Assembly (NCBI RefSeq): GCF_056712565.1
Contig: NZ_CM160072.1
Direction: 5' to 3' (one strand)
Length of the DNA stretch: 64,000 nucleotides
Shown here: positions 3,617 to 58,099 of the stretch, piece by piece
Layout of the letters: the number at the start of each line of letters is the position of its first letter
How positions within the stretch are numbered: position 1 is the stretch's first letter
The notes under the pieces: model-generated
What the model was told of the DNA's origin: nothing
What the model saw: the letters and a program-made list of their open reading frames with translations, nothing else
The model's database searches: none
Program-made: the position numbers and the translations under genes

Positions 3617-4165
3617 TTATTCAGTTTCAACGCGTTCGCGTATCACCACTGCGGGATTCCCCCGGCAAACCACATTTGCCGGAAGCGATTTAAAAACACT
3701 GCTTCGCGCACCCACGACGGTGCCGTCGCCGATCGTGACGCCAGGGGCAACAAAAACATCTGTCGCCAGCCAGCATTTCTCGCCAATCACAATAGGCGTG
3801 GCGTTAATGGTGAAATGTTGACTTGCATGGTCGTGGCTCCCGGTGCATAAATAACTTTTTTGCGATATCACCGAATGTGCGCCAATGGTTATTTCACCGA
3901 GGGTATATAAATTGACGTCATCGCCGACCCACGCGTAATCACCTAAGGTTAATTTCCACGGATAGGTAATTTTTACTGACGGACGAATAACTACGTTTTT
4001 TCCTATTTTTGCGCCGAATAAACGTAATAAAAATGCCCGCCAGCGATACAATACTTGTGGCGACCAGGCAAATATTGTTGCCTGTACTGCCCACCACAAT
4101 TGCACTTTAATAGCGTTGCCACCCCGGAACCCTTTCGGCACCGAGAATCCACTTAAATCCTGCAT
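3617..4165 (-). CDS. wcaF: Colanic acid O-acetyltransferase (hexapeptide-repeat)
   Basis: 182 aa with a left-handed beta-helix type repeat region (IGAHSVISQKSYLCTGSHD...VAPGVTIGDGTVVGARSSV). Cluster position. Confidence 0.88.
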   Translation of the reverse strand: MQDLSGFSVPKGFRGGNAIKVQLWWAVQATIFAWSPQVLYRWRAFLLRLFGAKIGKNVVIRPSVKITYPWKLTLGDYAWVGDDVNLYTLGEITIGAHSVISQKSYLCTGSHDHASQHFTINATPIVIGEKCWLATDVFVAPGVTIGDGTVVGARSSVFKSLPANVVCRGNPAVVIRERVETE

Positions 4166-4180
4166 CGTTTTCCCTTATAT

Positions 4181-4936
4181 TCAGCTTTTGTTATATAAGG
4201 CTTTCGTCTTTGAGGTAGTACGTTGGCGTAAATGCCAGGATAATTCAGCCCAAAAGCCAGGCACGTGCAATATCTGCCGTTGGACTTTTTTGGCGTCAGC
4301 ACACAATTCCATATTATTGGTGGTAGATACCCCACCCATGGAAAATTCAGACACCAGACCATTGAGTTTTTTAAATGCATAACCGGCTTTATACATTTTG
4401 GCCGCCAGCGCGTAGTCGGACGAAACTTTATATTCCAGGTCATAACGCCATTTTTTCAAGCCGGATACCGGGAAAAATATCGCCTGATGACTGGCGGGCA
4501 GGCTGTGATAAATATACCAGCCCGGTTTGGCGCTACGTTTAATTTTATGCCCGTCGCCAAAATCCAGCAGCGCATCGCCAGTGATCATCACGTTATCTTT
4601 TTGTACTTTTAACTTACGGACAAAATTTGCGGCATCCTGATGAAAAATATCACCTGAGTTGAGAAACAACGCGAACTTGCCTTGTGCCATCGCAATGCCT
4701 TTGTTCATGGCGTCGTAGATACCGTTATCTGGCTCGCTGACAAAGCGTAGGTTATAGATACCCTTGAGATTTTCCAGGTACTCACAGGTGCCGTCATTGG
4801 AACCGCCATCGACAACAATCCATTCGAAGCTGATATCGTCCGCCTGCGCCAGATGCGCCAGATGCGCCAGCGAGGCGTGTGTTTTGACTATCCCTGCGAG
4901 GTTACGAAACGCGACAGTGATTATGCTAAGCAACAT
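4181..4936 (-). CDS. wcaE: Colanic acid family-2 glycosyltransferase
   Basis: 251 aa starting [12 protein letters not shown], with DGGSNDGT and a DxD-type GT-A fold. Contains an in-frame 9-bp tandem duplication (see findings). Confidence 0.88.
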
Positions 4937-4946
4937 GTTCTTATTC

Positions 4947-6164
4947 TTACCTCGTAATATTTAACGCTTTTCGCAAAATAAACGGACAGACGATTAAAAA
5001 TGCATATTCCGGGCTAAATATCGAACCGGTAAAAAACAGCGATACCGGAGTAAAAAGATATAATTGCACGCGAAAATTGCGGTTATCACCAAAAGCGTTG
5101 ATCATCATTTTTATCACTTTCCCCATGTACCACAGCGATAAAAACACTGCGAACCAGGAAAAATAAATAATCAGCAGATACAAACCATTGTCTATGGTTT
5201 TTCCGACATCCGCACCGTTAAATATTCCGAATGATGCGACATATTCATAAAGTGAGCCAAATCTGACTACACCGTCAATATGGGTCAAAGAATAACCGAC
5301 CATCACCAGCGGACCGACAATACGATAATACGATGACGATCCTTCCGTGCCTAAATCACCCAGACGGGTGGAAATATAAGGAAATGCAATTACCACACCA
5401 ACCAGGAATACAGCCAGAGAAATCAATGCTAACGGTAACTTTTTCTTAATCGCCTCTTTATTCAGATATTGAAATGCCCACTCCAGCAAATAAAACAGGA
5501 TAAAGGTCATAACCCCTGAAAACGATCCGGATAATATTATCCCTGCGAGAATCATAGCATCGGTTTTAGGCGTTTTGATACCAAACTGTTTGATGCTGAG
5601 CCAAATTGAGATTAATGCCAGAGCGAAAAATGCCGGTTCGAAATAAAGTGCTGTCGTGCGCTTGCCGCCGAATTTGATGAAATTCAGCACATAGCTGTTG
5701 CTGTAAATCAGATATTTCGAAATCGATTCCATAATACTGCTGCCGCCGGTGAGGATAATTTGCGCCATCTCCACCGCCGCCAGCGCCACCACCAACCCGA
5801 CCACCAGATAAAAAAAGCGTAATATCTTGCGGTGGTTGTGGGGCGAAATCGTTTTAAAGCGAATACTCCACACCATGCCAATAATGATCACAATATAGAC
5901 AAACAGCATGGTTGAAGTGACGTATTTACTGGCATCCAACGACTGACCAAACAGGTAGTTAAACGCCGTGAGTCCCGCGCCAATCCCCAGGGCAATCATT
6001 AATTTTTTAACGCTGATGCGCTCTAAAAACAGCAGTAACAAGACAGGTAAAAAAGTGACGATGGTGATGGGGAAACTTTCACCAAGCTGGGCGATTTTGA
6101 CGTTAACCAGCAGGTAGATCAGCGGCAGCAGCAGGTAGCTACAGATTCTGATAGAAGTTGACAT
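4947..6164 (-). CDS. wcaD: Colanic acid polymerase (multi-pass membrane protein)
   Basis: The track ORF is 429 aa. I place the start at internal Met25 ([19 protein letters not shown]), giving 405 aa as remembered for WcaD. Highly hydrophobic. Confidence 0.85.
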
Positions 6165-7356
6165 ACTCCTCCAGCATCTGTTGTCCACTGTAGGCGGCAC
6201 GGCTGCGCTGGCTGAACTCAGCCAGCGTGGTACCAAATACCGCCTGCGCGATTTCCGGTTTGCTTAACTGGACCAGTTGCAGCACGTCTTCTTCACTGAC
6301 GGTTTTACCGCCGGATTTTTGCAGCACTTCCCGCGCCGCGTCGCTATGGGTGGCAATCACCGGCACGCCAATCGATAGCGCCTCACACAAAATTAGCGGG
6401 TAGTTATCGACGCGAGAACTGAATACCAGCGCATCCATCTGATTGAGCGCGCTCATCAACTTGCGCTTGTCAGTTTCAAAGCCGTGATTAACCACGTTGC
6501 CAGCGGTGAACGGCGAGAACTTACCAAAGGTATGCAGTTCGATTTTGTCGCCCAGCGCCATCATCTCGCGTACCAGTTGCTGGTTAGTTTTGCCGTCGTA
6601 ACGCAGGTCATGCGCTACCACCGCGATTTTCGGCTTGCCCTGAGTTTCGCGCACCGGAGGCAAGTCCGCCAGAATCGCTTCGGTTGCCATATCAATGCCA
6701 TTATTGATAATCCGGCAACGCCCTGGACCGTACAGACTATTGAAAGCATCAGCCACATGCTGGCTGGGGGAAATAAACTGACAGCCCAGCGCCAGCATCT
6801 CACGGAATAACTGGCGTTTGCCCGCCACCAGCTGGTGTGCGCGATCAATCTTCACCGGCGGATAATTATTTAAGGTCGGGCATTTCTGGCAGCCCGTTTT
6901 CCAGCCTTCGCAACCGTCGGTAAAGGCGCAGCGTCCGGTAACGCTCCAGTGATCGTGCAGCGTCCAGACCAGAGTGACATCCGGTTTGTGGTTTTTCACC
7001 TTTTCGCAAAAGCGCACCACGCTCTTAAGATTTAGCCAGTAGCTGTGCAGCACATGAAAATGCAGAACCACCGGGCCCGGTGTGCGAGTAATGGTGCGAT
7101 ATAACTCATTGAAATTGCCAAACAGATCGCGATTAAACAGACGAAACAGGGCAATGTTCGCCATCGCGGTCATCTGCGGCGTATGTTTGATGACCTGCGG
7201 ATAGTTTTGATTGCTGACGCTCTCTTTGCCGCCTTTGCCGTAGCCGTAGACAAAATGTGACGCCAGCCCCTGTTGCAGCGCACGCTGGTGGAGATCTAAC
7301 GCCACACCTGCCGCCCCGCCTTCCGCCAGTCGCACATTAAATTGCAAAATATTCAT
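6139..7356 (-). CDS. wcaC: Colanic acid glycosyltransferase (GT4-like)
   Basis: 405 aa starting MNILQFNVRLAEGGAAGVALDLHQ. Cluster position. Confidence 0.88.
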   Translation of the reverse strand: MNILQFNVRLAEGGAAGVALDLHQRALQQGLASHFVYGYGKGGKESVSNQNYPQVIKHTPQMTAMANIALFRLFNRDLFGNFNELYRTITRTPGPVVLHFHVLHSYWLNLKSVVRFCEKVKNHKPDVTLVWTLHDHWSVTGRCAFTDGCEGWKTGCQKCPTLNNYPPVKIDRAHQLVAGKRQLFREMLALGCQFISPSQHVADAFNSLYGPGRCRIINNGIDMATEAILADLPPVRETQGKPKIAVVAHDLRYDGKTNQQLVREMMALGDKIELHTFGKFSPFTAGNVVNHGFETDKRKLMSALNQMDALVFSSRVDNYPLILCEALSIGVPVIATHSDAAREVLQKSGGKTVSEEDVLQLVQLSKPEIAQAVFGTTLAEFSQRSRAAYSGQQMLEEYVNFYQNL

Positions 7357-54225: not shown

Positions 54226-54254
54226 TAAAGAAAAGGCGGGCAATTCGCCCGCCT
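54226..54254 (-). terminator. Rho-independent terminator for leftward transcription entering from the G/cargo side
   Basis: The minus strand reads AGGCGGGC-GAATT-GCCCGCCT followed by TTTCTTTA. Confidence 0.72.
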
Positions 54255-54312: not shown

Positions 54313-54331
54313 AAACCTGACAGTCTGCTTT
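54313..54331 (+). repeat. 19-bp dyad-symmetric site A (attL-like boundary of the cargo segment)
   Basis: AAACCTGACAGTCTGCTTT. Direct repeat of 57958-57976 (17/19, embedded in a roughly 26-nt similarity CTA(A)TCAAAsCTGACAGTCTGsTTTG). Confidence 0.55.
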
Positions 54332-54460
54332 GAGCGAAAAGTGGACATTAGAGTTACAAAAGCAAGTTTAAATCATCCAAAATATTACAATGTCCTTATC
54401 TATCTGATATCGTTATGATAAAAAGCTCCTGAATATAATCGATAGTAGGTGGTTATTTCC

Positions 54461-54838
54461 ATGAAATCAATTTTAGAGGTCTTTACTCAAGGAAATACTA
54501 AAGAAAAACTGGCTGTTATCGCCGATCTCACAACCATTGCGGGAATATCGATTGCAACTATTATTGCTGGTTTGTTAACCCTAGTTGCAAAAACAGATAA
54601 ACTAGATGTTGGAAATCTGTTTGGAGTTGTCATAATATCTCTGCTCGGATTGGCTGGTGTTTGCTGTTTTGTGGCCTTATTTATTTGGGTTATAACCCAA
54701 ATGTCTAAACCATGGGGAACACCTCGGGGGGTTCAGCCCTTAGTTAAGTGTGCTATTTCCCTTATCTTTATCTGTATGTTTTTGCTGGCTGTCTTTACAT
54801 TTTATGAGTTTATTTCTTCGATGAGCATACGCTATTGA
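54461..54838 (+). CDS. Small 3-TM membrane protein (cargo)
   Basis: ATG at 54461 after AGGTGG; the track starts at a GTG 12 nt earlier. 125 aa with three hydrophobic helices. A perfect TATAAT lies at 54434-54439. Confidence 0.6.
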   Translation: MKSILEVFTQGNTKEKLAVIADLTTIAGISIATIIAGLLTLVAKTDKLDVGNLFGVVIISLLGLAGVCCFVALFIWVITQMSKPWGTPRGVQPLVKCAISLIFICMFLLAVFTFYEFISSMSIRY

Positions 54839-54860: not shown

Positions 54861-55445
54861 TTAAAAGAGACCTTCTATATCGACTTCAATGCCCAAATAA
54901 CGGACTGTGCTTTCCAGTTTCTTATGGCCCAACAGAAGTTGGATCACCCGGAGACTCTTGGTTTTCTTGTAGATTAAGTAAGGTTTTGTTCTTCTCATGG
55001 AATGTGTGCTGTACAGCGAATCTTCGAGACCAAGCTTTTCTACCCACCCATGAAAAATTCGGTTGTATTGCCGGGTTGATATATGGTGGTTAGTTCCGAC
55101 CCGAGAGCGGAACAGGAAGCCTTTACTATGCCAGTTGCCGAGCTTTATCAATGCAGTAACCGCTTCCCTTGTCCCTTTGGTTATCTCAAATTGGACAGGG
55201 CTGCCGGTTTTCTGTTGCAACACCGTTGCTCTGCTTGAGACAGAACTGCCATATGCAGCATCTGATACTTTGAGTTTGACCAAATCACAGCCCCGTAGCT
55301 TAGTGTCCAAAGCCATGTTGAACAGAGCTAGATCGCGTGTTTTACCTTCCAACTCAAGTCTAATCCGGATCCCCCAGATATGAAATATCTGAAGTGGCCT
55401 TTTTTGACCGATGGTACGGTCTTTATTCCACGGTGACGTTTTCAT
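54861..55445 (-). CDS. Small tyrosine recombinase / integrase (cargo)
   Basis: Start set at MKTSPWNKDR (ATG at 55445, SD AGGAG 8 nt upstream), giving 194 aa; the track uses a TTG 34 codons upstream. Catalytic signature: LRGCDL (Arg I), THSMRRT (H-x-x-R), LLGHKKLESTVRYL (His and the Tyr nucleophile). Confidence 0.8.
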   Translation of the reverse strand: MKTSPWNKDRTIGQKRPLQIFHIWGIRIRLELEGKTRDLALFNMALDTKLRGCDLVKLKVSDAAYGSSVSSRATVLQQKTGSPVQFEITKGTREAVTALIKLGNWHSKGFLFRSRVGTNHHISTRQYNRIFHGWVEKLGLEDSLYSTHSMRRTKPYLIYKKTKSLRVIQLLLGHKKLESTVRYLGIEVDIEGLF

Positions 55446-56291
55446 ATTCAAATCTCCTGCAATGTGGGAGATTTGAGTATGGTTGTCTCTCAAGAGCGAA
55501 AATAAGTCAACTATCACTAGTTGTTGCGCATGTACGTATTCTGTCAATTAATTATTGACAATCATCAATTCTGGAATGATCAAAATCATCATATCGAATT
55601 ATAGTCTGGTTGACTGTATCTATTGTTGGTGTCATTTCTGTTATAATATCCTGATAACCTAAAGAGTTAAATACATTTACTAAGGCCTCACACCGAAGGG
55701 CCGTAGCAATTACAAAATTATAAATTGCCAGCCGTTTATTTTCTTGTTTAACTGCAAGAATGAATTCGATAGCAGTATTTTCATCACTTTGGATTGCATT
55801 ATATAGAGATACTATATTTACCATATCATCAGAGAATGTATGTATTGAATCACAAAGGGGAACGTAATGGGCATGATAGTGTGTTTCCCAGCCAATTAAT
55901 TCAAAAAGTCTTCTGGTTCCTGGATATTCAGGTGTATTTGGCCACAATCTATTAAATAGATCAGTTAGTTCTTTTCCCATGCGAATCCTTTCATTTGCTG
56001 CTGGATTAGTCATTCCTTTGGATTTTAAACACTCCAGCCACCGTTTTCCATTACTATGAACTAATTTCTTACTAGCCTTGAGTAATGCTTGTGCATTTTC
56101 GCCATCATCTATTGCTATATAAAATTGATTGGCAGCCTGTTCTATTATAACCCTAGCTAATACTTCCGATGCTGAAAAGGCTCCTATATTCAAAGAAGAG
56201 ATAGCCTGATTACTAAGTTCATTCAGTACATTAAAGTACTGTAAGACCATCAATTTTTGTTCCACACCCTTTAGGTTGTCTGGATTTGCCC

Positions 56292-57197
56292 CTATATTTC
56301 CAGACACCTGTTATCACTTAACCCATTACTGGCTTGCTGCCGTAGATATTCCCGTGGCGAGCGATAACCCAGTGCACTATGCGGATGCCATTCGTTATAA
56401 TGCTCGAACGCCTCTGCAAGGTTCTTTGCTGCCGTTAACCCGTCTGGTTTGGGCATGACACTGATGTAGTCACGCTTTATCGTTTTCACGAAGCTCTCTG
56501 CTATGCCGTTACTCTCCGGACTCCGCACCGCCGTGCTCTTCGGTTCAAGCCCCAACATCCGGGCAAACTGCCGTGTTTCATTAGCCCGGTAGCATGAACC
56601 ATTATCCGTCAGCCACTCTACTGGAGACGCCGGAAGCTCGTTGCCGAAGCGGCGTTCCACCGCTCCCAGCATGACGTCCTGTACTGTTTCACTGTTGAAG
56701 CCGCCCGTAGTGACCGCCCAGTGCAGTGCCTCACGGTCACAGCAGTCCAGCGCGAACGTGACTCGCAGTTTTTCTCCGTTATCACAGCGGAACTCGAACC
56801 CGTCAGAGCACCATCGCTGATTACTTTCTTTCACAGCCACTCTGCCTGTATGTGCCCGTTTCGATGGCGGTACAGCAGGTTTTCGCTCAAGCAACAGCGC
56901 ATTCTGGCGCATGATCCGGTAAACACGTTTGGCATTGATCGCAGGCATACCATCAAGTTCTGCCTGTCTGCGAAGCAGCGCCCATACCCGACGATAACCA
57001 TACGTGGGCAGCTCTCCGATAACATGGTGTATACGGAGAAGCACATCCGTATCATCAGTGTGACGACTGCGGCGGCCATCCATCCAGTCATCGGTTCGTC
57101 TGAGAATGACGTGCAACTGCGCACGCGACACCCGGAGACAACGGCTGACTAAGCTTACTCCCCATCCCCGGGCAATAAGGGCGCGTGCGCTATCCAC
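56292..57197 (-). CDS. insD: IS2 OrfB (InsD) DDE transposase, made as an OrfAB fusion by -1 frameshift
   Basis: 301 aa. Slippery A_AAA_AAG at 57197-57203 in the orfA/orfB overlap. Confidence 0.92.
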
Positions 57198-57520
57198 TTT
57201 TTTGCCCGTCCATATTCAACGGCTTCTTTGAGGAGTTCATTTTCCATCGTTTTCTTGCCGAGCAGGCGCTGGAGTTCTTTAATCTGCTTCATGGCGGCAG
57301 CAAGTTCAGAGGCAGGAACAACCTGTTCTCCGGCGGCGACAGCAGTAAGACTTCCTTCCTGGTATTGCTTACGCCAGAGAAATAACTGGCTGGCTGCTAC
57401 ACCATGTTGCCGGGCAACGAGGGAGACCGTCATCCCTGGTTCAAAGCTCTGCTGAACAATTGCGATCTTTTCCTGTGTGGTACGCCGTCTGCGTTTCTCC
57501 GGTCCTAAGACATCAATCAT
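57155..57520 (-). CDS. insC: IS2 OrfA (InsC), HTH protein
   Basis: Start set at [26 protein letters not shown], giving 121 aa. Confidence 0.92.
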
Positions 57521-57957
57521 CTGCTCTCCAATGACTAGTCTAAAAACTAGTATTAAGACTATCACTTAAATAAGTGATATTGGTTGTCTGGAGATTCAGG
57601 GGGCCAGTCTATTGTCTATTTTATTTTTATGCTCCTCAAATTTTGCATGGATATATTTATTTATCGCGGCTATTTTTTTTACATCTTCGTCAAGATCAAA
57701 CGGGCAACGTCCAAACAATTCTTTTTTCATATATTTCTCCTGTTGTACAAGCTTCCATAAGTTGGCAGATTATACACTGAAGATTACCTATAAATAGCTG
57801 TGCGGGATAGCAGATCAGTGCAAGAAGTACAACCAAGTGAACTGTGCGTATTCAGATACCTGGCCTAACGTTCGCGATAGCCGTCCCCTGCACGAAGCCA
57901 TATATTAGATGTATTAGCTCAGACCTTATCTGACAGGTTGAGTAGGTAGAATCTAAT

Positions 57958-57976
57958 CAAAGCTGACAGTCTGGTT
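57958..57976 (+). repeat. 19-bp dyad-symmetric site B (attR-like boundary of the cargo segment)
   Basis: AAAGCTGACAGTCTGGTTT, a direct repeat of site A. A lone half-site-like GACAGGTTG lies at 57931-57939. Confidence 0.55.
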
Positions 57977-58080
57977 TGGACTGTGAGTTCAACCGATGGA
58001 TGCAACACACAGCGATCTACGGACATTACTAGCATAGCTGTGTATTAATCATCGGGAAGCAGGTCAGTCCGCTCCTAGCA

Positions 58081-58099
58081 CAGAGCAGACTGTCAGATT
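58081..58099 (-). repeat. Third, inverted copy of the site (site C), in the loop of a 9-bp hairpin downstream of G
   Basis: The plus strand AGAGCAGACTGTCAGATTA matches 16/19 of the reverse complement of site A. It is flanked by AGCACAGAG / CTCTGTGCT (58077-58116). Confidence 0.45.

Follow-up and report, generated by a model that had tools for sequence, protein, structure and literature searches.

The stretch of DNA analysed here (the window) is a 64,000-nucleotide segment of contig NZ_CM160072.1, from NCBI RefSeq assembly GCF_056712565.1. It carries a P2-like prophage, one accessory gene of which, encoding a protein with a DUF5677 domain, is split by a copy of the insertion sequence (IS) IS2. 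The gene lies between the tail-sheath gene FI and the tail-fibre assembly gene G, an interval that is the classical Z/fun hotspot of P2. Assignment to the hotspot rests on gene order and on the RefSeq annotation in Escherichia coli S88, with P2 backbone homology ending at 54349–54352 and resuming at 58067. The GC content is 34% in the DUF5677 gene, 39% in the cargo and 52–56% in the backbone. A small tyrosine recombinase gene and a three-transmembrane (3-TM) gene share the cargo region, and the positions of all features are collected in Table 1.

An IS2 element interrupts a DUF5677 gene

The interrupting element is intact and is the only IS2 copy within the window. Its left and right inverted-repeat ends (IRL and IRR) fall at 57611 and 56281, respectively; one terminus reads TGGATTTGCCCCTATATTTCCAGACA... 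and the other, as its reverse complement, TAGACTGGCCCCCTGAATCTCCAGACA..., which are the imperfect terminal repeats of IS2. The transposase genes are co-oriented with the gene that they interrupt. IS2 orfA matched the NCBIfam model for IS2 TnpA (PRK09413) over 121/121 positions with 275.8 bits (cut-off 229), orfB matched that for IS2 TnpB (PRK09409) over 301/301 with 713.1 bits (cut-off 597), and the A6G motif, the programmed −1 frameshift site between the two reading frames, is kept. A copy of TTGTC abuts each end; a 5-bp target duplication is usual for IS2.

Most E. coli genomes carry several copies of IS2, which was matched by 4,383 of 5,426 complete genomes, the IS part giving 1,048 records at ≥99% identity, so that a repeat-collapsed copy might conceivably have been misplaced in the contig during assembly. 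We regard such an artefact as extremely improbable, since the precise 5-bp duplication, which is single-copy in empty alleles, and the register of both junctions are the signature of transposition.

Removal by script of IS2 and one TTGTC copy yielded an 843-nt open reading frame (ORF) that begins with the ATG at 57730, ends with the stop at 55552 and encodes 280 amino acids (aa). The sequence AGGAG lies 6 nt 5′ of this ATG. The TATAAT hexamer further upstream is a fact of the sequence and its promoter role is putative; a promoter scan left it unscored because there is no usable −35 element. The 251-aa ORF listed for the window starts at a GTG at 56307, 27 nt (nine codons) within the IS2 end, and its first nine residues (MSGNIGANP) are therefore IS-derived. 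Downstream, 4 nt separate the DUF5677 ORF from a TTG-start ORF for the recombinase, and 106 nt separate it from the recombinase ATG at 55445, which is the RefSeq start.

These results bear out the anatomy given by the original prediction, which was made from the DNA letters without database searches. It had described an IS2 with intact inverted repeats between perfect copies of TTGTC, an in-frame 280-aa product (identical in sequence to ours) once the element and one duplication copy are deleted, and a 5′ piece with its ATG and an AGGAG Shine–Dalgarno sequence below a TATAAT. It had also described a chimeric 251-aa ORF whose first nine codons come from IS2, and a recombinase 4 nt from that ORF and about 100 nt away if counted from its likely ATG.

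Intact alleles and the age of the insertion

The corresponding gene of E. coli S88, at the same location, is 843 nt long and uninterrupted. It is annotated as "DUF5677 domain-containing protein" (WP_000711880.1), has one TTGTC at the junction and shows the N-terminus and frame as rebuilt, the differences being 2 nt and one residue (K162R). The 251-aa ORF is accordingly best recorded as an IS2-disrupted pseudogene of the DUF5677 protein, with the S88 product as intact reference. We then queried complete E. coli genomes with 800 nt spanning the rebuilt junction. The query was matched without a break in 56 of them, of which 36 had ≥99.6% identity (19 of these 100%) and the other 20 had about 89.6%. 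In the 19 identical genomes, as in S88, TTGTC is single and the N-terminus and frame continue over the junction, so that the claimed duplication survived comparison with empty alleles. In a collection of 15 billion proteins, the exact rebuilt protein was represented by at least 1,000 public contigs and the 251-aa chimera by none.

A 300-nt probe over the left IS2 junction was covered in none of the 5,426 complete E. coli genomes, and the gene halves flanking IS2 show zero substitutions relative to the 19 intact genomes. Because the duplication is perfect, the element looks functional, the halves are free of substitutions and the junction has no match among those genomes, the insertion is recent and, on public data, private to the source strain. 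The recent origin that had been suggested on the basis of the duplication thus gained further support. Functional work would be feasible without synthetic repair, given that type and reference strains, namely ATCC 11775, S88 and IHE3034, carry identical intact alleles (for S88, see the differences above).

The rebuilt protein and its family

The original prediction could name no family for the rebuilt protein. It does have one: the protein matched Pfam DUF5677 (PF18928) over residues 50–194 with 39.5 bits (gathering cut-off 27.1; E = 8e-10) and phrog_4167 over residues 1–280 of 280, and RefSeq already annotates the intact gene in this way. The 3′ fragment left by IS2 holds the entire Pfam domain. 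When 1.84 billion representative proteins were searched exhaustively with a profile, DUF5677 relatives fell into 82 clusters at E ≤0.001, which makes the family a small one, and all 60 aligned full-length relatives matched Pfam DUF5677 and no other notable model. Four residues are invariant across the family (R81, E85, Y173 and H185, all encoded in the 3′ fragment) and nine more are nearly so (≥90%; L79, N89, W119, P158, F164, S183, D190, N193 and Y225). The His-rich patch to which attention had been drawn earlier is present as HYHAHYVPLCDSIH and is conserved within the close subfamily.

An AlphaFold2 model built from the 60-sequence alignment is confidently all-helical, with ten helices, a mean predicted local distance difference test (pLDDT) score of 95.2 and a predicted template modelling (pTM) score of 0.92; it superseded an earlier, poor model from 8 sequences (pLDDT 66). 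Helix 1 (residues 13–40) is a confident part of the modelled bundle. Foldseek comparison of the model with PDB and BFVD found no relative, with nothing below E = 0.08, sequence and profile searches of the rebuilt protein against PDB chains gave noise only (E ≥0.5), and an NCBIfam scan gave no match. We did not adopt an assignment to the HEPN proteins, because the defining Rx4-6H motif is absent: no arginine stands 4–6 residues before any conserved histidine in the family. Sequence and profile comparisons with HEPN families also gave no matches.

PADLOC-DB v2, searched at E up to 1, held no family for the DUF5677 protein, the recombinase or the 3-TM protein. The sole experimental mention of DUF5677 that we found in the literature is a 2025 preprint (PMC12632615), which reports that the domain is enriched beside serine recombinases in Bacillota; one Bacillota DUF5677 ORF was tested there in Enterococcus faecalis and fell outside the five candidates that protected against a six-phage panel.

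The position of the domain bears on whether IS2 might have given the gene a new regime of expression, with read-through from IS2 or a hybrid promoter at IRR driving a truncated DUF5677 protein, or with recombinase expression being altered. Candidate products would be the 251-aa chimera or a protein of 232–237 aa, either with the whole DUF5677 domain; the part of the gene beyond IS2 keeps residues 41–280, the element is co-oriented with the gene, and an in-frame GTG lies within the IS end. A promoter scan, however, found no outward-facing promoter-like site at the IRR end, and such products would, according to the model, lose helix 1 from the bundle. We consider a regulatory or neo-functional insertion of this kind very unlikely.

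Neutral or selected disruption

In our reading, an active-looking IS2 transposed into codon 39/40 of a 280-aa DUF5677 accessory gene, duplicating TTGTC. The insertion truncates the gene and is probably polar on the downstream recombinase, and the event itself is most simply put down to chance, as a near-neutral hit in AT-rich, non-essential prophage DNA. We thus hold it to be very probable that the locus records a recent, near-neutral IS2 insertion in a cargo gene of the G–FI (Z/fun) hotspot and not a selected removal. A chance, near-neutral event is favoured because 56 copies are uninterrupted, the intact allele is abundant, the gene has a GC content of 34% and it is dispensable to the prophage. 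It is the neutrality that we infer here; the anatomy, the reconstruction, the family membership and the frequency of intact alleles are direct observations.

The original prediction had instead read the IS knock-out as the mark of a costly or toxic gene, for example of the abortive-infection type, whose loss would have been favoured in this lineage. That the P2-like Z/fun hotspot is known for defence cargo (Rousset et al. 2022, PMC9122126; iLund4u preprint, bioRxiv 10.1101/2024.10.15.618418) would suit selected inactivation, as would the pseudogene state of the linked recombinase in the E2348/69 clade, but all 56 copies of the DUF5677 gene in complete genomes are intact, the exact intact allele lies on at least 1,000 contigs, PADLOC gives no match and the homologue put to the test showed no activity against a panel of six phages (PMC12632615). 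The proposal is not supported by these data, and the IS2 disruption should not be taken as a sign that the DUF5677 gene is toxic.

Several points nevertheless weigh against a purely neutral event. Neutrality is not demonstrable by sequence, and a cost under some conditions is possible because the DUF5677 gene has two further lesions near it, the only ones found other than IS2; that the same locus was hit by both would also favour selected inactivation. In E. coli 98208, an ISEc12 element (IS21 family) sits about 190 nt 5′ of the DUF5677 ATG, next to one of the palindromes described below (site B). It occupies positions 4901–7203 of that locus, equivalent to about 57924 of the window, and, lying upstream of the putative promoter, it may well leave the gene active. 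The second lesion, in one draft lineage (GCA_053942915.1), is an A8-to-A7 frameshift in codons 17–20 (equivalent to about 57670–57680 of the window), which leads to a premature TAG and a 237-aa call; it could be a second loss-of-function allele or, lying in a homopolymer, a sequencing error. Weighing these points together, we regard selected inactivation as improbable, and the near-neutral insertion remains our preferred explanation. The finding is accurate but ordinary: this is a textbook IS2 insertion, and the intact form and its family are already in the databases.

Genomic contexts of the DUF5677 gene

Copies of the gene were found on several mobile backbones. One at about 90% identity lies just 3′ of replication gene P in a lambdoid prophage that E2348/69 shares with about 20 further strains, and one at about 95% lies within a Tn3-family transposon in a Buttiauxella metagenome-assembled genome. 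Relatives at 41–54% identity occur in lambdoid prophages (beside genes for DUF4365, NADAR/phosphoribosyltransferase (PRTase) and GAPS4-type PDDEXK proteins), in a TrbL conjugative region and in a chromosomal islet. As these relatives are without the recombinase, we rejected a functional tie between it and the DUF5677 protein. A tblastn search of 50,697 phage genomes with the DUF5677 protein gave no match, and a locus search with the close alignment returned two loci only.

In the lambdoid context, the unit that carries the gene is followed by a conserved pair encoding an AAA_15/AAA_21 ATPase and an HNH endonuclease, which looks like a defence system, and then by hokD and rem. The circular plasmid pZ1323HEC0067-2 (8461 bp) consists only of a lambdoid segment with cro/cI, replication genes, the DUF5677 gene, a recombinase pseudogene, the ATPase–HNH pair, hokD and rem; it could be a fragment of a prophage that was excised or misassembled.

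The DUF5677 gene is thus a mobile accessory gene whose company is often defence-like, and a role in conflicts between mobile elements is suggested because the gene always stands in mobile contexts and much of its company is of this type. Such support is circumstantial. We tentatively propose that the protein may act as a stand-alone effector in defence or exclusion, as an all-helical bundle with a polar cluster of the invariant R, E, Y and H, a proposal that we rate as possible but not probable. Counting against it are the circumstantial nature of the evidence for defence, the blank PADLOC result, the non-protective family member, the lack of a Foldseek relative and the absence of the Rx4-6H motif.

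A small tyrosine recombinase beside the DUF5677 gene

The neighbouring recombinase matches the generic Phage_integrase domain only, remaining below the NCBIfam cut-offs for XerA (49 bits; cut-off 220), invertase (22.9; 222) and integron integrase (18; 265–435). Its C-terminus here reads ...GIEVDIEGLF before the stop, whereas the common 200-aa form ends in ...GIEVDDALEISESIEV, the two diverging from 54879. Elsewhere the stop codon is followed by the hairpin CAGGGCTGCAxCAGCAGCCCTG and a half-site, both of which are missing from the copy in the window, and the segment with the 3-TM gene begins exactly at this breakpoint (54861–54879).

The recombinase gene together with a 15-9-15 palindrome (window 54879–55499) occurs at 88–90% identity in 772 of the 5,426 complete E. 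coli genomes, Nissle 1917 among them, a frequency of about 14%, and its 90%-identity protein cluster counts 3,385 members across Enterobacterales. The edges of homology are sharp, at 54879 and about 55499, and both flanks are variable and often defence-like; flanking genes in the carrier genomes encode a restriction endonuclease, a CBS-domain protein, a member of the ETEC_3214 family and assorted hypothetical proteins. A larger unit with reproducible ends, from 54879 to 58067–58090, is common to the P2-like, lambdoid and Tn3 contexts and comprises the recombinase, the DUF5677 gene, their upstream region and site B, with the 3-TM gene excluded. In the lambdoid clade (E2348/69 locus, 4046–4566) and in 2013C-3033 (locus 4965–5567) the recombinase is a pseudogene, with a frameshift or internal stop, in both cases beside intact cargo.

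The 15-9-15 palindrome is conserved in every recombinase copy and might serve as an operator, as a hairpin that affects translation or as a site of recombination. In Yersinia phage vB_YpM_22 only about the first 8 recombinase codons and a remnant of this palindrome persist, beside a different cargo gene (locus position about 1085–1160). For now we have rejected a Fim-like invertase that flips the cargo or a promoter, given its invertase score against the cut-off; all 35 full-length matches have the same orientation relative to FI, and the orientation of the segment between sites B and C (Table 1) is constant in every copy.

Lox-like palindromes bracketing the cargo

Three related palindromes lie in and around the cargo, each with a 10-8-10 layout such as CAGTCCGCTC-CTGGCACA-GAGCGGACTG. 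The degenerate 15-mer GWGCBARRWGYRKAC occurs exactly twice in the window (0.01 expected), once in site A (54332–54346, plus strand) and once in site C (58067–58081, minus strand), and the two copies bracket the entire cargo. The 15-mer recurs two or three times in three of four other recombinase loci examined (L023, at 3906, 4923 and 7109; L026, at 3546 and 6781; L024, at 5616 and 8764), where the palindromes flank stretches of variable DNA, about 3 kb long, in unrelated islands. A locus within the Tn3-family transposon (L010) has six 15-mers that delimit three consecutive segments, each between one plus and one minus copy. Ten loci without the recombinase or the hotspot lacked the 15-mer.

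Sites A and C arrive with the cargo. P2-like phages with different cargo are homologous up to the inner border of the two sites, and in the cargo-free P2-like prophage of E. coli FY26 (locus 690–860) both are absent; in cargo-free phages, about 10 nt separate the G stop codon from the backbone terminator hairpin. Because the cargo-free FY26 state lacks them, the "conserved hotspot edges" seen in most P2-like phages are themselves inserted DNA. We rejected the view of sites A and C as plain P2 backbone on the grounds that they are absent in cargo-free phages and that the site is also found in the Nissle island and the Tn3 transposon.

The arrangement suggests, as judged from sequence comparison, that recombinase and sites form a system for inserting or exchanging cargo. 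Going further, the DUF5677 gene might be cargo of an undescribed site-specific cassette system, widespread in Enterobacterales, in which a 194–200-aa recombinase acts on lox-like sites of about 28–40 nt that bracket genes, a possibility that we put forward with reserve. Homologous recombination between shared palindromes would leave a similar pattern. No recombination product, by inversion or excision, was seen among the genomes examined, and all copies have one orientation. A simple empty site with A joined to C was also not found among complete genomes.

If the cassette system exists, defence-type cargo would be moved or swapped among P2-like prophages, lambdoid prophages, Tn3-family transposons and chromosomal islands, in a natural form of recombinase-mediated cassette exchange that would account for turnover at the P2 Z/fun hotspot. 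Recombinase and palindromes could in that case explain how cargo enters and leaves this and other prophage hotspots, a mechanism that is left open in the accessible part of the P2 hotspot literature (Rousset et al. 2022, PMC9122126). This by-product of the analysis is more interesting than the IS2 finding and merits follow-up.

Table 1. Features of the cargo region, in window coordinates
Feature	Position	Strand	Remarks
P2 backbone terminator hairpin	54234..54254	minus	upstream of FI
Site A, decayed 10-8-10 palindrome CAGTCTGCTT TGAGCGAA AAGTGGAC	54314..54346	plus	FI-side cargo edge
3-TM gene, 125 aa, phrog_4155	54461..54838	plus	outside the unit common to other backbones
Small tyrosine recombinase, 194 aa	54861..55445	minus	Phage_integrase domain only, without N-terminal core-binding domain
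15-9-15 palindrome (CATATTCAAATCTCC...GGAGATTTGAGTATG)	55443..55481		over the recombinase ribosome-binding site and ATG
DUF5677 gene 3′ fragment, D39 to Q280 plus stop	55552..56280	minus	
Target-site duplication copy 1, TTGTC	56276..56280		single TTGTC in intact alleles
Intact IS2, 1331 bp	56281..57611	minus	ends, full-length TnpA/TnpB, A6G frameshift site
DUF5677 gene 5′ fragment, codons 1–39 plus 2 nt	57612..57730	minus	ATG 57730, AGGAG upstream
Target-site duplication copy 2, TTGTC	57612..57616		single TTGTC in intact alleles
TATAAT hexamer	57769..57774	minus	upstream of the DUF5677 gene; also conserved in the E2348/69 copy
Site B, third related copy	57960..57987	plus	inside the DUF5677–recombinase unit, carried into lambdoid/Tn3 contexts
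Site C, 10-8-10 palindrome CAGTCCGCTC CTAGCACA GAGCAGACTG	58067..58099	minus	G-side cargo edge, inverted relative to site A

Comparison with known systems

The element itself conforms to IS2 of the IS3 family in its length of 1331 bp, its imperfect terminal repeats, its orfA/orfB arrangement with the A6G site and its 5-bp duplication. It has no unusual feature, and the strain is distinguished only by the target, a P2-hotspot gene of the DUF5677 family. The cargo resembles that of the P2 Z/fun region, including fun(Z) of phage P2, in its position between G and FI and in being AT-rich foreign DNA whose content varies between phages. Its three genes (DUF5677, tyrosine recombinase and 3-TM), however, are unrelated in sequence to Fun(Z) and have no PADLOC match. 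Within Pfam DUF5677, the subfamily studied here stands out by extra conserved His/Cys residues (HYHAHYVPLCDSIH) that are not invariant family-wide. HEPN RNases, both the minimal AF0298/2hsb type and the sacsin HEPN, differ from the DUF5677 protein by the Rx4-6H motif that it lacks.

Like the palindromic core sites of the Cre/loxP and Flp/FRT systems, the palindromes here have a 10-8-10 layout with asymmetric spacers; they bracket single genes or small gene sets. The recombinase is similar in size to FimB and FimE and, at 194–200 aa, has the catalytic domain only; against the NCBIfam models for Xer, integron integrase and DNA invertase, its scores fall far short of the cut-offs. As in integron cassette arrays, bracketed segments can be arrayed in one locus, but the sites that bracket them here are not attC-like.

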